Source: Oscillospiraceae bacterium (lineage in GTDB: Bacteria > Bacillota > Clostridia > Oscillospirales > CAG-272). From it: 64,000 nt of DNA. How positions within the stretch are numbered: the stretch's first letter is position 1; each line of letters starts with the position of its first letter. Both the position numbers and the translations under genes were made by a program. The DNA lies in contig SVTY01000004.1 in NCBI GenBank assembly GCA_015063535.1, positions 58,343 to 122,342 of the forward strand, read 5' to 3'. Under the pieces are notes generated by a model. The model worked only from the letters and a program-made list of their open reading frames with translations, had not been told where the DNA came from and did not search any database. Shown in pieces: positions 18,664 to 24,600 of the stretch.

Positions 18664-21600
18664 ATGGCATATAAAACACGGCAACAGATCTATCAAGAAA
18701 ATCTGGCAAGGAGAGCCGGATATCTGAAATCTCCCGCGCAGCGCAGAGCCGAAGCGCAGGAGCGTCTCAGAGCGGCGCAAGCCGCCAAGCAGGCACAGGC
18801 GCAGGAGGTGGAGACAAAGATCAAGGCGGCATCTGAAAATGTCAATCCGATCTGGCGAACCTTATCAACGGTAAATCGTGTTCATGGCAAGGTCGCCACG
18901 GGTGCGTTGGGGGCGATCGAGGGCTTGGTCGATACGGTGATCGGCATCGGCGGAGCGATCGGCGGTGTCTTTGACGACGACATTCAAGAGGGGGCGCAGA
19001 AGATCATCGCCTACAACGCCACCGAGGAATGGGTGGGCAAGCACATCGACGAGCTGACCAAATATTCCTATACCGAAGGAAACAAGGTCGGCGAGATCAT
19101 CGAGGGCGTGGCATCGGGCGTGGGTCAGATGCTTCCCACTGTGGCGGCGGCAGCCATTACGGGCGGCGGCTCGTTGGCAACCACAGCGGCAACCAAAGCC
19201 GTCAGCCTTGGCGTCACGGCAACCAGTGCCGCAGGCAATGCCATGCAGGATGCCTACAACGAAGGCGCCGACTACTATCAGGGTCTTGCCTACGGCGCCA
19301 CCAGCGGTGCTTTGGAGGCGGTCACCGAAAAGCTCTCGGGCGGAACCATCGGAAGGATCACAGGCGTGGGCAAGGGCTTTGCCGATGATGCACTGAAGAA
19401 CGTGGGCAAAACGGGCATTGCCCGCATTGCCAAGGAAGCCGTCGGCGAGGGCGTGGAGGAAATGATCACCGAAGCGGCAAGCCCTGCCCTGAAGAGCATT
19501 TACAAGGGAAGAGAGGGGCTTCGGGAATACGGCACGCTCGAATTTTACGGACAGGTGGGAGAAGCGGGCCTTGTGGGTGCTCTGACCTCCGTGGCATTCG
19601 GACAGACGGTCGGCAGAGCCACTCTGCGGGGCGGCAATGCGGACATCAACGAAGCATTGGAATCCATCCGAGAGATCGACCAAAAGACCGACAAGCGGAT
19701 CATCACCTCCGATCTGACCGAGCGGGATATGGAAAGCATATCCCGGGCAAAGGGAGAAAACTATCGGAATATCGAGCAGGTGCTGAAGAAGATGGACGGC
19801 GAAAAGCGGGCGAAGATGATGACCCGCTACGGCTTTGACGGTATGTTCGATTCCGATGGCACGCTGAGAGCTGATTTTGCCGCCTCCAACGGCTTTTCGG
19901 TATCGGATGGGAAAGTGGTCGCCAACACGCAGAACCGTGTCACAGAGGCAAATTTACGCTATGTGGCACCGTCTCTGCGGAACAACCGCACCCGCATTGC
20001 CGAGGACTTGGCGGCGATCAATGAACGCCGCAGCGAGGGAAGCGCTCCTGTTGCGGTGTTCGGCGGTACGCTGTCCGCCGAGGGCGAGCAGGCATACAGC
20101 CGCTTGAAGGCGGCTGTGGCGAAGCTGAACCGCAAGGCGAACAGCCGTATCAATGTCACCGTCGTTACCGCCAACCCCGATTTCCAAGGCGTCTCCGTGC
20201 AAAAAAATAACATCTACATTGCTGCAGATGTGTTGGAAAACACCGCCCTTGCTGAACAGCTTGCCAAGCAAGTCGAGCAGACGGAGCAAACCGAGCAAGA
20301 CACAGCTCTTGACAATTTCGCCGAGGTGAGGTATAATAGAAAAAGCGATACCGAAGATTTATATACCGCTACGGATGCTTTTGTAAAAGAGGTTCACTAT
20401 GTGGACAGGCATTCCTTCGCACGAAGTCTTGCCAATAAAACCTCCGATATCCAAGAGGGCGAAACCAAGAATTTACATATTTATTGTGCTAAGAATATTT
20501 ATGTATTTGAAGCAGTCGGATACATGCAGGGTACGATGATTTTTTCGGTAAGTACGGATGCAAAAAAACAAAAAGAAAAAGAGAGAGGGAGATTTTATTA
20601 TGGCACTGACCGAAACCGAAAAGAAACTGATTTTGGAGCTGGCAGAAACCGTATTGAGCGAGGACGATCAAATCACTACACTGACAGTTTTGCAAACAGA
20701 GGAACAGAGAAAGCAAATGATTCGCTTCTTGCAGGAGAATCCCAACGCAACAGAGCAGGAGATTTTGAAAGAAGAAGTGAGGCTAATCAAGATACACGGG
20801 AAGAAGTAGATAGAATTGTTCATGAACTTCGGAAAAAATATGGAGAGGATTCAGCGCAAACAAATAAAATAAGAGATACCGCCGACCGAATTAACGGCCT
20901 TGAGCGCCCCAAACCAAACGAGGGTTACGCTCTAACAAACGGTATCTCTGATGATAGTATATCAGATTCTTCCGAAAAAGTCAATACCGATTCGAAAAAA
21001 ATTTCACATACCCCTATCAACACCGACCACGCCGTGAAAACGCTGATCCACGAAACGACCCACTTTGAAGAGGGAACGCCCGAATATTACGAGTTCATTC
21101 GTTTCCTTGCCGAGGATGAAAGTCTGATCGAGGAAACGATCCAAATGCTTACCGAAGAAAAGACAGGGTATGGCTTTACCAAGGAGCAGGCGAGTGTCGC
21201 CATGCAGAAGTTCGAAAACGGCGAGAAGCTCACCGAGGCGGAGCGGGAATTTATTTCCGAGCTAAACGCCCACGCCTCCGAGAAGCTGCTGGGCGGCAGT
21301 CAGGCGTTCATTGAAAAGTTAATACGGGGCGACAGCACACTGGCAGAGAGGGTGCTGGGCCGCATCACCGACGCTAAGGCGGCATTGGAGAGCCACCGTT
21401 CCCCCACCGCCCGAGGGCAGTATCTGCGCCTGAAGCGTGCGGAGCAACTCTATATGAAAGCCATTTCCGCCGCCGGTATGGGGTACTACAATGGTAAGAT
21501 TACGGTGAGGGAAGAAGAGGAGCAGAAACAGTACAATAGAAAAACTCAGATAGATGATCGGTTACAAATAGAAGTTTTGCGATCTATTGGCAGAAAGAGT

Positions 21601-24600
21601 ATCAATGATTTTACATCGGAGGATATTCAAAAGACAGAATATTGGGCGAGAAAGTTCTATGCGGAGCTTGGAACAAAATCGCCATTTTTCCGTGCGCAGT
21701 TTGGTGATTGGAGAGCACATGATGCGACACCCATTCAATTGATACCGATCACCACTATCAACGTAGAAAATGCTCTTTCGAATATGCCAACAGGAATCTT
21801 TTCAAATAATGATGCTGGCTGGAATATTTCTGTTGGTAGTCTTGGGAAAAATGATACCGTCAGCCATTCAGGCAGAGAAAAGATTTCTGTAAAAATGCTT
21901 TCGGAAATCAAAAAAATTATTGAAAGTGCTGTCCTTCTCGATACCGAAGTATCTGTAAAGGATAGTTCTAAAAAACACAATGAAACTGCTTTTATGCATA
22001 AGCTTTATGCTCCTGTTGTCTACAACGGACAGCACTACATTGCAAAAGTAACAGTTGAAGAGTATGGAAGCAATGAATCAAGCAAGCGTTTTTACAACCT
22101 TCGAGGCATAAAAATAGACCTTGCCGGCGGTACCCCGAATGCAAAAGCATCCTACGGCACAGTGCCAAACACAAGGTCTATAAATAGTATAGCAGACCTG
22201 TTTGCCTTTGTCAAGGAGTATGATAAAAAATTTTCTCCCAAGCCTGTCAATAAAATGCTTTTGAATGTAGATGGAACACCCAAGGTGATGTATCATCAGA
22301 CGGAAGAGAGATTCGATGGTTATAATCCTGATATCAAATTTTCCCGAAAAGAAACTGCGGAAACCGATTTCTTGGCAGAGGCGAAACGTTCCAACGAGAA
22401 AGTCACGATGACCAAAGGACAGTTGGAAAAGCAACGTGCCAATCTGTATGGCGAAAAAGTATTTAGCAAAAAGGATGTTGCCGAAGCGGTGAACGACATT
22501 GAAATTTTGGAGAAAATCGGAAAGAACATTGCCGATCGGAAAAGACCTGAGCTTGAGGCACAGCTGGCGCAAGCGAAAACACAAAAAGAAAAAAGGGCAA
22601 TTGAAACAAGAATAAAATACTTAGAGCAAAATGCGATTGCTGAAATGCGGAACAGATTGACTGACCATTTGTGGACGGGCTTCAACCAAAGACGAGATTC
22701 GCAAGCATATGAAAACTACGCCGAGATCATGTATAAAAAAATACATGCCGAATTTATGAGCGAAACAAACCATGATATGGATACCGATGAAGTTTGGGAG
22801 ATGGACAGGCAGATCGGACAGGCATTGCGGACGATCATCAAGTCCGGCAAGCTTTCCAAATATGAAACCAAAATGCTGGAAACAACGGCGGCATATTGGC
22901 GAGATCAATACAGGCAAGGTCAGGAACGCACCAAGCTTCTCGGTACGCTGATGAATCAAACGCAGAAGCTCAAGGAGCTGAAATCGGGAGCCTTTCTGAA
23001 TGCCTCCGTGTACAAAAGCGACGTGTTCAAGTCCACCGTCGAACAGCTATCACGGATCAATTATCGGGGCAATCTGAATGTCATGGGTACTCGGAAGCTC
23101 ATTGCCGATCTGCTTGACTGGTATCAAAGCGATAATCCAATGCTTGGATATGTGGACGAAGCGAACACCGGCTATTTCCGACAGGAAGTGGCGGATGCCA
23201 TGCGGATGATCGCCGAGGGCGATAAGGGCTTGAGCAATCAGGAGTTGCAGATGCTCGGTGAGGTGATCCTGCCGCATTGCATATTCATTGTGGAAAATTT
23301 CAACAAGGTCTACCGAGAGGGCAAATACATCGAAGCCATGCCCTTGGCAAAAATGTACGTCAAGAAGCTGCAAGCCATGAAGCATCGAAAGGACGGCTTG
23401 ACCAAAAAGTATCTGCGTACCTTTGGCGATCCCGCCTCTCTGATGCGTTATGCCGACGGCTATGACCCGAACGGATTCTTTACGCAAACCTTTGAGGAGC
23501 TCCGAGAGGGAGCGATCGGCGCCTCCGTGACAGAGAGGGAGCTGTTGCGGGAATTTGAAGCCTTCCTCCATGGAAAAGGGAAGGGGGACTATCGCAAGCA
23601 TCTGGAAAAGGATACCGTCACCTATCTCGGCAAAGAGATGTCTGTCCGCCATGCCATCTGCCTGTATATGACACACAAGCGAAAGCAGGCGGTAAAGGGA
23701 TTGTGCCTGTCAGGGATCGAATTGGAGATTGACGGCAATCGTGTGCGCCTGCCGGCATTGATCGCAGAGGATGGAAAAAAGCATTCTGCGCAAGAAATGC
23801 AGGCAACGGTGGATGCCTCCGCTGCGAAACTGCTTGAACAGTTCTCGGAGCAGGACAAGAAGCTGATCGAGATCATGGAAAAAAGCTTTGCTCGGAGCTC
23901 GACTTTAAAAGAAAATACCGATAGGAAGCGTTTTGGATTTTCCAACGTGTTAAAGAGTGGCTATTATTTCCCAATACGTCGGGCAAACGTAGCGCATAAT
24001 GTGGACGAGAGCTTTTTTGCAGAGGTCGACCGTGTGACGCATCTCGGATTTAATAAAGATACCGTGCAGGGAGCGGCGGGAGCTTTGCTGATCGAACCGA
24101 TCGACACAGTATTTACCCGCCACATGAGAGGAATTGCTATGTATGCGAACTTGGCGATTCCTACCGACAATTTCAACCGCTTGCTGAACTTGAACACGGA
24201 AAGCAATCACAATCTGCCGATCAGTGTTCTTTCCGAGATTCAAAGCACAGCCGTAAGCACAGAAATGTTCAAATACCTCAAGGAGCTCAAAGAGAGCATT
24301 GAAGGGGTCAACCGCTCCGAACAGAGTGCCAAGTGGTTCAACCGTGCTGTCGGTCATATTCGCAGCGGCTTTGCCAAGTTCCAGCTCGGCGCCAATGCGA
24401 AGGTGCTCATCACCCAAACATCTTCTTTATTTGCCGCAACAAGTGTGCTGGACTATGATTGTGTCGTCAAGGGACTTGCGATCCAAAACGCCTATGCCGA
24501 GGTCGATACATACTGTCCGCTTGCCATGGTGAGAAATTCGGATAATACCGTTGCGCTGGCGCAGGGTGTTTTGGATAAGACGGGGAAGGTCGGAGATATC

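Follow-up and report, generated by a model that had tools for sequence, protein, structure and literature searches.

Candidate protein and antisense RNA genes embedded in the cassettes of a giant phage polyvalent-protein gene

Introduction

In phage lambda, Rz1 lies wholly inside Rz in the +1 frame, and the two constitute an embedded lysis gene pair. Cis-antisense RNAs are represented by lambda OOP and by the RNAs of the Bacillus subtilis prophage loci txpA/RatA and bsrG/SR4; where such an RNA acts as a type I antitoxin, it overlaps the 3' part of the toxin message. Folded elements also accompany coding DNA: Rickettsia palindromic elements are in-frame palindromic insertions, and integron attC sites are folded elements at cassette ends. 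The subject here is a 2489-amino-acid (aa) open reading frame (ORF), read as a polyvalent-type phage virion protein gene, which appears to carry both a second protein gene and antisense RNA genes within its own coding DNA. It lies in the window, the 64,000-nucleotide stretch of an Oscillospiraceae genome that was analyzed (GenBank assembly GCA_015063535.1, contig SVTY01000004.1, positions 58,343 to 122,342).

A first-pass annotation of this DNA had proposed that two AT-rich modules of the giant ORF are self-contained in-frame cassettes, and that each carries, hidden within it, a counter-agent to its own effector. The physical features are all present: the 2489-aa ORF, the two AT-rich modules, three promoter-like sites, the antisense structures, and a +1 ORF with a ribosome-binding site (RBS). 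The proposal that these are conserved genes and not chance motifs also stands, on the evidence of family membership, covariation, and open covering frames. Taken together, the comparisons indicate that the nested protein gene and the antisense RNA units are very probably genuine genes. Such hidden genes recur in many related giant phage genes, where they look like accessory genes that move with swappable modules.

Results

The nested +1-frame gene

The small +1-frame ORF in the first AT-rich module (module A; Table 1) encodes a full-length member of a protein family of about 66 aa. A search of 1.84 billion representative proteins returned 31 relatives at E <= 1e-3, many of which are 64-87 aa long and align end to end at 32-50% identity; free-standing proteins are among them. 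A family profile search places members in 15 of 300 other genomes of the order. AlphaFold2 models the window's protein as four helices (predicted local distance difference test, pLDDT, 90.1; predicted template modeling score, pTM, 0.77).

The setting of this family is nearly always the same. In 21 of 23 genomic instances (the profile matches in genomes of the order, plus five found later), the gene sits within a longer ORF on the same strand, always in the +1 frame, with covering ORFs of 154-3101 aa. Not one of the 21 covering frames has a stop across the nested gene. When the protein sequence is kept and synonymous codons are redrawn from local usage, 2-9 stops are predicted in the 16 nested instances tested, and zero stops arise in 0-9% of draws; for the window, 2.83 are expected and none is present. 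The other forward frame holds 3-14 stops across the nested genes, and the two family members that are not nested have seven and four stops in the corresponding frame. Most nested instances begin with an ATG behind a GGAGG/AGGAG-like Shine-Dalgarno (SD) sequence at similar spacing.

Conservation lies in the nested frame: over 210 pairs, its mean BLOSUM62 score is 42.7, whereas the covering frame has 4.8. With hydrophobic fractions of 0.35 and 0.17, respectively, the nested frame is twice as hydrophobic, and what the giant frame encodes across 20600-20809 seems to be a polar, probably disordered linker. The arrangement has the marks of an overprinted gene: a second frame apparently under selection, its own start, and a covering frame that stays open. 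This pattern argues that the nested gene is dual coding maintained by selection, rather than an accident of purine-rich sequence. A frameshift in the assembly can be dismissed, since 20330-21187 is matched with 0 differences by a contig of another public run. Contigs of run X7 leave ~20158-20655 uncovered and do not join across it, a gap to which no weight is given.

Upstream of the nested gene, the main frame always encodes a small conserved domain, which belongs to one of two classes. Nine instances of class 1 were aligned, and 10 columns are invariant; class 2 is found ahead of one sub-family of the nested gene. Ten flanking class-1, class-2, or class-3 domains match no Pfam family, and the window's class-1 domain has none. 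The sense promoter-like site sits at the start of the window's class-1 cassette. Across relatives, a sense site scoring at least 10/12 (matches to the TTGACA and TATAAT hexamers) lies within 450 nt upstream of nine of 16 nested genes, the background being 34 sites of this kind in 95.8 kb of giant ORFs, a number that includes several of the nested-gene sites themselves. The sense promoter thus appears to be a frequent, not a constant, companion of the nested gene, and the SD of the nested gene would also permit translation from the late mRNA.

Two single loci bear on the family. In L030 (G278:C1, ~468560-469760; a complete genome), the zincin-like scaffold is broken by an in-frame stop ahead of the nested gene, with a covering ORF of only 286 aa. 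The locus has the look of a polyvalent gene in decay, in which the nested gene and its open covering frame persist. In the 379-aa protein P0004, two nested-protein domains flank a sigma-70 region 4 and an RNA polymerase alpha C-terminal domain (alpha-CTD; Pfam E 2.5e-6 and 9.3e-13, respectively). The fusion hints that the nested-protein family may act on transcription.

RNA1, a conserved structure on the antisense strand

Module A also carries, on the opposite strand, a predicted RNA termed RNA1. Its fold comprises a 12-bp closing stem, beginning ~6 nt after the -10 hexamer, and two inner hairpins (minimum free energy, MFE, -36.3 kcal/mol; z -4.3). The sense-frame peptide over RNA1, IRDTADRINGLERPKPNEGYA, led to 34 loci in gut Clostridia metagenome-assembled genomes (MAGs). 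At these loci, it is the DNA that is conserved rather than the peptide. The first-pass annotation had suggested that the S-I peptides over the antisense promoters should keep the promoter nucleotides at synonymous sites, and this is what is found: S-I is always encoded AGT-ATA and V always GTC, in 5/5 and then 9/9 instances, where background use of the AGT, ATA, and GTC codons is 14%, 24%, and 21%. Loci with other residues in place of S-I still fit A-N-N N-T-A. In L039, L045, L052, L058, and L064, the same promoter nucleotides are kept in a different reading frame or behind a stop.

The structure is conserved as well. In an alignment of the 34 sequences, the 26 base pairs of the fold are paired in 99.4% of 875 cells, as compared to 37-50% in slid-partner controls. 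Covariation, the check that had been suggested for the antisense RNAs, is positive for RNA1: 13 of the 26 pairs have changed on both sides, versus 4.8+-1.3 in shuffles, with 0/500 reaching 13. More diverged members, recovered with a covariance model, retain the fold and add further compensatory changes. Many pairs are U-G; as these would be A-C on the sense strand, the folded molecule is likely the antisense strand. A predicted promoter, TTGAC-N17-19-TAnnnT, is present at 27/34 loci and a T-rich tail at 27/34, with both at 25/34.

Several known element types were considered for RNA1. Model R1 scores 118.8 bits at the window's RNA1, which is the single copy in its genome, and RNA1 occurs in 5/150 other genomes of the order at 1-2 copies each; with 1-2 copies per genome, a multi-copy miniature inverted-repeat transposable element (MITE) or miniature palindromic mobile element was rejected. 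A tRNA was rejected with ARAGORN (0 genes). A possible likeness of parts of RNA1 to Cas9 repeat or tracrRNA segments is given no weight. A type III toxin-antitoxin system of the ToxIN kind has a tandem-repeat antitoxin RNA, and the RNAs here are single-copy units; the only tandem repeats within 19800-22800 have 9-nt and 6-nt units in ~3 copies each. Rfam 15 gave nothing at E <= 1 on 20800-22300, and nothing on the element in nine solo or short-ORF RNA1 loci. A 17-nt RNA1 word is found in six IMG/VR viral contigs, of which only L092 holds a true RNA1 by the model.

The genomic contexts of RNA1 fall into several kinds. In 20/34 loci, its sense strand is an ORF of 738-2710 aa, and in most of these long-ORF loci an LPD3-like domain ending ...YHIYDITKK comes directly before the RNA. 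In eleven loci the RNA is covered by a short ORF only. Eight of these eleven are solo copies without an LPD3 remnant: in seven the neighbors are ordinary chromosomal genes, and the eighth is flanked by a pair of structural-looking prophage genes. One solo copy that consists of the folded core alone has compensating changes in its outer stem. In these comparisons, the solo chromosomal copies seem to fit a trans-acting role better than a purely cis role.

If the RNAs and the small protein were host-directed accessory genes, or morons, they would act in trans on the host, in lysogenic conversion or counter-defense, and would merely be lodged in tolerant linker space. Such a role could accommodate promoters of the host consensus type, the solo RNA1 copies in chromosomal settings (one beside three same-strand tRNA genes, another close to a 23S rRNA end), and the hint of a transcription link in the P0004 fusion. 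It leaves unexplained the constant position right after LPD3/PBECR3 or class-1/2 domains, and the fusion clue is a single protein. This explanation is regarded as improbable.

The two chromosomal settings just mentioned are as follows. In L069 (3841-3941 and 4227-4485), three tRNA genes precede, on the same strand, an RNA1 whose promoter has a degenerate -10 hexamer. In L058 (4000-4100 and 4617-4696), where a short LPD3 remnant accompanies RNA1, a 23S rRNA gene has its 3' end upstream on the RNA1 strand. Such copies may have been left behind at integration sites linked to tRNA genes, or they may be stable RNAs that were captured.

A further element is seen antisense, 3' of the RNA1 U-tract. 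Most loci in the L038-L067 range (e.g. L041:3977-4000) have there a palindrome, ATATCATA-n-TATGATAT, which the window does not have. Its sense-frame reading is YHIYDIT, the last strand of the LPD3-like domain, and a signal in DNA or RNA may thus have helped to shape this conserved peptide.

RNA2 and the linkers of LPD3-type cassettes

A second predicted antisense RNA, RNA2, lies in the linker that follows the LPD3 domain of module B. The 131-nt stretch that contains it has an MFE of -39.8 kcal/mol (z -2.7). Model R1 gives RNA2 13.5 bits (E 0.64); because this model fails to recognize RNA2, the two RNAs are treated as analogous, not homologous.

Homologues of the LPD3 C-terminus that bears RNA2 in the window are found in 10/400 other genomes. 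All 11 evaluable LPD3 C-terminal linkers (the window and 10 other loci) have an antisense TTGACA-17-TAnnnT. After each of these 11 promoters comes a closed hairpin with an 8-17-bp closing stem, and in most the T-rich stretch is clear. The RNAs at these linkers are alike in architecture and unrelated in sequence. So diverged are the RNA2-type sequences that their alignment predicted only five pairs.

The architecture can be asked for without reference to either RNA. It is defined here as: a closed 61-85-nt domain starting within 3-7 nt; a closing stem of at least 7 bp; dG (folding free energy) <= -20; and a T-rich tail. In 14 giant ORFs (95.8 kb), the closed hairpin and T-tail follow 20/51 antisense promoter-like sites. 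Among antisense sites scoring 11/12, the figure is 13/16; among sense sites, it is 0/33, and among random antisense positions, 1/168. In L062, L067, and L044, which have Pfam PBECR3/LPD3 domains, the antisense promoters lie ~100-150 nt past the domain ends. Promoter, hairpin, and T-tail together therefore appear to mark the 3' linker of LPD3/PBECR3-type cassettes.

Viewed as cis-antisense RNA genes, both kinds have a predicted opposite-strand promoter of their own, in 27/34 RNA1 loci and in 11/11 LPD3 linkers, independent of reading frame. Conserved structure and an intrinsic terminator are indicated for RNA1 by covariation and the T-tail (27/34), and for the RNA2 type by the shared architecture (11/11).

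The antisense sites of the window have a word in common, AGTATA-N18-GTCAA, which occurs three times in the window versus 0.02 expected. The third copy (26543-26571) is intergenic; it was rejected as another such RNA, since no closed hairpin follows it. The giant ORFs of L062 and L067 (~2700 aa) have many antisense promoter-like sites per gene: four at >=11/12 in L062, two of which are 12/12, and eleven at >=10/12 in L067. The sense peptide over these sites is a recurring I-I-P-Q-N-x3-V-K/N linker.

An explanation at the level of DNA would make the hairpins recombination sites or small palindromic mobile elements that drive in-frame shuffling, with the promoters and U-tracts incidental. It draws on several properties of the hairpins: they stand at cassette 3' ends; their structure is conserved while their sequence varies; four solo copies are a closed core only, with unrelated flanks from the stem edge; the cassettes occupy different points of a homologous scaffold; and the RNA1 stretch is common to several contigs of the same metagenomes (loose ends 20860-20866 and 20948-20961). 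The promoter hexamers, at 17-nt spacing, are nevertheless outside the stem and are kept in 27/34 RNA1 loci and 11/11 LPD3 linkers, as is the T-tract in 27/34. Copy number is also low, at 1-2 per genome in 5/150 other genomes, and the inner helices covary, with U-G pairs on one strand only. Recombination hairpins are accordingly judged very improbable.

Cassettes in the giant frame and their surroundings

The two modules differ in how they are placed. BLASTP alignment of the window's protein with the relative L041 shows the same zincin-like scaffold in both, with the window's HETTH aligned to HELTH. In the window, module A is inserted just before the HExxH helix, where the scaffold of L041 is contiguous; L041 instead has an LPD3+RNA1 cassette ~60 residues beyond this insertion point. 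Homologues of the whole of module B are present in 10/400 other genomes of the order. The modules begin with [YF]-[NS]-[RK]-K-type motifs. The start of module B was considered as a promoter and dropped, as it shares with module A only a -10-like TACAAT. Base composition sets both modules apart, with a G+C fraction of 0.40-0.43 around 20250-21000 and 0.37-0.42 around 21450-22350, between flanks of 0.52-0.62.

Searches with module sequences gave little else. Protein-guided scans of viral contigs returned no relative of modules A and B; module A has only sub-threshold Pfam and PHROGs matches; and neither module A nor the RNA1 DNA nor the nested protein was matched in a cultured-phage collection. 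Past the RNA2 promoter (window 22250-22344), the main frame reads ...NVDGTPKVMYHQTEERFDGYNPD and then meets a new KFSRK boundary. In relatives, the homologous ...NEDGTPKVVYHGTDAEF..FD runs on into a further domain, of which the window apparently retains only the first ~20 residues.

The claim that the embedded elements belong to swappable modules is supported. The RNAs follow LPD3/PBECR3 domains, the nested gene follows class-1/2 domains, and the cassette sites differ between relatives; the window's own RNA1 has lost its LPD3 domain.

The giant gene itself has the setting of a virion protein gene. It is the last long plus-strand ORF upstream of a truncated host-type P-type ATPase gene, with a portal gene in the same block, and the portal and tail-fiber-like genes upstream place it among virion or late genes. 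It is also a very large protein of the multi-effector kind: at 2489 aa, it has an LPD3 domain, and relatives with the same scaffold have LPD3, PBECR3, and LPD23. Pfam finds a single domain in the whole protein, LPD3 at aa 1036-1144 (E 6.7e-15). A PHROGs match at aa 1659-2231 is to phrog_22978, a family of very large proteins without assigned function. No Pfam peptidase model matched the window's protein, and in one relative Peptidase_M78 is a weak match only, without a passing stretch.

Table 1. Positions of the features of the giant gene and its neighbors in the window
Feature	Positions	Strand	Remarks
Giant ORF	18664-26133	+	2489 aa; polyvalent-type virion protein gene, as read from the ORF
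Module A	20239-21021	+	AT-rich in-frame insert of ~250 aa inside the zincin-like domain, between ...NIYIAADVLEN and TLIHETTHF
Sense promoter-like site	20309-20337	+	TTGACA-17-TATAAT, 12/12; 291 nt upstream of the nested gene; encoded by L-D-x6-Y-N
Class-1 main-frame domain	20344-20568	+	F.R..ANKT.....G....Y...A.GY..G; always directly upstream of the nested gene
Shine-Dalgarno sequence	20585-20591	+	GAGGGAG, 8 nt before the nested ATG
Nested gene	20600-20809	+	69 aa, +1 frame; predicted four-helix protein; main frame open across it
RNA1 (predicted)	20949-20864	-	78-nt three-way-junction RNA, 20949-20872, and U-rich tail, 20871-20864; sense frame IRDTADRINGLERPKPNEGYALTNGIS
RNA1 promoter-like site	20984-20956	-	TTGACT-17-TATACT, 10/12, with TG; sense frame S-I-x6-V-N
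HETTH (HExxH) motif	21049-21063	+	Zincin-like peptidase scaffold interrupted by module A; read from the sequence
Module B	21529-22344	+	AT-rich LPD3 cassette, QYNRK to KFSRK; LPD3 core 21769-22095, Pfam E 1.2e-15
RNA2 (predicted)	22181-22106	-	68-nt closed hairpin domain, 22181-22114, and U-tract UUUUUAU; 11-bp closing stem
RNA2 promoter-like site	22214-22186	-	TTGACA-17-TATACT, 11/12, with TG; sense frame S-I-A-D-L-F-A-F-V-K
P22-like portal gene	5898-7808	same as giant ORF	Upstream of the giant ORF
Gene with tail-fiber-like matches	13387-15618	same as giant ORF	Upstream of the giant ORF
P-type cation ATPase gene	27009-28757		Without N-terminal part; downstream of the giant ORF

The spacer behind the giant gene (26133-27009) has back-to-back consensus promoters, at 26241-26269 on the plus strand (12/12, TG) and at 26571-26543 on the minus strand (11/12, TG), together with several minus-strand terminator-like hairpins and small ORFs. 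The only Rfam hit there is a sub-threshold sroE-like terminator at 26130-26168. As the ATPase gene that follows lacks its N-terminal part, the spacer may be the prophage end and integration site.

Discussion

A proposed mechanism

The evidence can be assembled into the following proposal. The giant virion-protein gene would be a mosaic of in-frame domain cassettes, some of which carry a second, independently expressed gene in the same DNA. Cassettes of the LPD3 type, and in relatives of the PBECR3 type, end in a linker whose opposite strand holds a predicted sigma-A-type promoter, a 60-85-nt stem-closed RNA, and a U-tract. Class-1/2 cassettes are followed by a complete +1 gene of ~66 codons with its own RBS, the giant frame staying open there as a polar linker. 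The comparisons show these genes, whereas what they do is inferred. The products would restrain the adjoining effector domain of their own cassette. The RNAs could do so by base-pairing to the message just 3' of the domain's coding region, in the manner of antisense and type I antitoxin systems, or alternatively by binding the domain as decoys; the nested protein would be a binder of the adjoining domain. Expression would come from host-type promoters, whether the late operon is on or off, and each cassette would be a self-sufficient effector-plus-antidote unit, movable in frame.

As a whole, the statement that mosaic cassettes carry embedded, independently expressed genes that restrain their own effector domain is given a probability of about 0.45. 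The component claim that the embedded products are antidotes to the neighboring domain is tentative, with the odds somewhat against it. Its support comes from the linkage of the embedded genes to particular cassettes and from one structure prediction. The first-pass annotation had held that an embedded product binds or neutralizes its effector, and a complex prediction for the class-1 domain with the nested protein lends this weak support: ipSAE (interaction prediction score from aligned errors) is 0.52, as compared to 0.00 for the best of three controls, a value to be read against a calibration in which the mark was reached by 58/80 solved complexes and 2/110 mismatches, and in which scores at <=0.60 comprised only 7/80 solved complexes plus both mismatches that passed. 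The runs agree in at least 92% of contacts, with partner pLDDT of at least 81.

Several observations weigh against the restraint of an adjoining effector. First, RNA1 in the window is without its usual LPD3 domain, and the class-1 cassette and nested gene abut it instead. Four of the solo copies, moreover, are the folded core alone: they have neither promoter nor T-tail, and their flanks diverge exactly at the stem. From the window copy and the solo cores, it follows that RNA1 needs no neighboring effector. Second, the first-pass annotation had counted LPD3 among the BECR-fold nuclease-like domains, which combine an N-terminal helix and a 4-5-stranded sheet with catalytic His and Ser/Thr, and the LPD3 model does not settle this fold. 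The model is of low confidence (pLDDT 65.9; a helix, then four strands), its best Foldseek matches are designed NTF2-like proteins (E 0.011, not significant), and there is no RNase among the matches listed. Third, nothing marks the nested protein as an antitoxin: Foldseek with its model gave no significant neighbor (best E 0.87); Pfam and PHROGs gave only sub-threshold matches to the ORF, and Pfam nothing consistent across 23 aligned members; and the ESM Atlas gave no usable match. Fourth, the sense promoter is present at the homologous site at >=10/12 in only 3/9 class-1 cassettes (the window, L025, and L067b). Finally, the related loci share ancestry and are not independent, such that the counts given above overstate the statistical weight. 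To these can be added that the function of LPD3 is classed as unknown in the article text of the published domain survey, in which PBECR domains are predicted RNases (Iyer et al. 2017, PMC5512222).

The number of promoter-like sites also has to be weighed, as it touches on chance. Were the features accidental, AT-rich and purine-rich coding DNA would have yielded functionless hexamers, hairpins, and an open alternative frame, and AT-rich DNA is indeed richer in such motifs. At >=10/12, the gene has three sites where synonymous-codon shuffles have 1.42, and 43/300 shuffles reach three; at >=11/12, it has two where 0.18 are expected, and 2/1000 shuffles reach two. The former count is not beyond chance, and the latter is. 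Chance fails, however, on other grounds: the family membership of the nested ORF; the open covering frames in 21/23 instances; the covariation of RNA1; promoter retention independent of frame; and an architecture found after 20/51 antisense sites, versus 0/33 and 1/168. On these comparisons, chance can be regarded as excluded as an explanation.

Among the alternatives, ordinary antisense regulation of a large late gene is the strongest, and morons and recombination hairpins are less likely. Under such regulation, the RNAs would be made from constitutive promoters and act as OOP does, pairing with the giant mRNA to direct its cleavage or colliding with sense transcription, and so silencing the late gene in the lysogen or timing it; the nested protein would be an assembly or processing helper made from the late mRNA. 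The RNAs are, by construction, perfectly complementary to the giant mRNA, and there are several per gene. They share with lambda OOP and other classical antisense RNAs a short length, a high degree of structure, a strong promoter (here predicted), and a terminator. The SD of the nested gene, for its part, is inside the late transcript, and the promoter upstream is not always there. For such control, however, one RNA would suffice, yet the RNAs track particular domain types; and solo copies persist in chromosomes that have no giant gene to regulate in cis. Simple cis control is on these grounds unlikely, if less so than the other alternatives.

The proposal of embedded, restraining genes can be extended further. 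In its widest form, polyvalent genes in general would be series of autonomous effector-plus-antidote cassettes, with the antidote written in the linker DNA, on the other strand or in the other frame, so that a domain swap always carries its neutralizer. Solo RNAs would then be captured by bacteria as immunity against injected effectors, and some linker motifs would exist only on account of the embedded genes. This extension is possible but, on balance, doubtful.

The embedded genes have consequences of their own. Giant polyvalent proteins are annotated as mosaics of protein only; if their linkers hide RNA and nested protein genes, then a whole layer of what phages encode escapes gene callers and domain surveys, and several conserved "linker motifs" would need to be re-read as nucleotide-level signals. 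RNA1 is a candidate new RNA class, supported by covariation and without an Rfam model, in prophages of uncultured gut Clostridia and in solo chromosomal copies. The nested gene appears to be a clean case of dual coding, with the same frame relation across many diverged genes. The antidote reading, if true, would explain the free shuffling of potentially toxic domains between phages, and would suggest a way, open to testing, in which lysogens or hosts withstand injected effectors.

Comparison with described systems

The giant gene resembles polyvalent proteins in being a giant multi-domain protein encoded among virion genes, with LPD3, a putative zincin-like HExxH scaffold, and extreme mosaicism, as set out in the article text of the published account (Iyer et al. 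2017, PMC5512222). Relatives of the window's gene further carry the PBECR3 domains that this text predicts to be RNases. It departs from that account, in which the genes are treated as protein mosaics only, in that the linker "peptide" motifs here seem to be read-outs of antisense promoters and RNA genes, with a second protein gene in another frame. In the article text, the terms "overlapping", "antisense", "promoter", and "noncoding" have 0 occurrences. Literature searches on polyvalent proteins, LPD3, PBECR, and prophage antisense or overlapping genes yielded no description of embedded genes in such proteins.

Folded elements of the Rickettsia palindromic and attC kind are similar in lying within or at the ends of coding cassettes, in leaving the frame unbroken, and in conserving structure more than sequence. 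The elements here differ in having a hairpin between a promoter and a U-tract, in their low copy number (1-2 per genome), and in covariation that is specific to one strand.

The antisense RNAs are, like OOP, RatA, and SR4, short and strongly folded, with a constitutive-type promoter of their own (here predicted), an intrinsic terminator, and complementarity to the 3' flank of a coding region. In contrast to those RNAs, the partner here would be a domain in a 2000-3000-aa polyprotein rather than a small toxin gene, and several RNAs can be present per gene, each tied to a swappable domain cassette.

As with Rz1 within Rz, a small gene, complete and with a start of its own, occupies the +1 frame of a larger one; both frames stay open, and an interaction between the two products is possible. 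Unlike Rz/Rz1, the nested gene belongs to an unrelated family, the gene that hosts it is a giant effector mosaic, free-standing members exist elsewhere, and the covering frame is apparently only a polar linker. Phages are known to have both overlapping genes and antisense RNAs; in the literature searched, no account was found of such genes being built systematically into polyvalent-protein cassettes.

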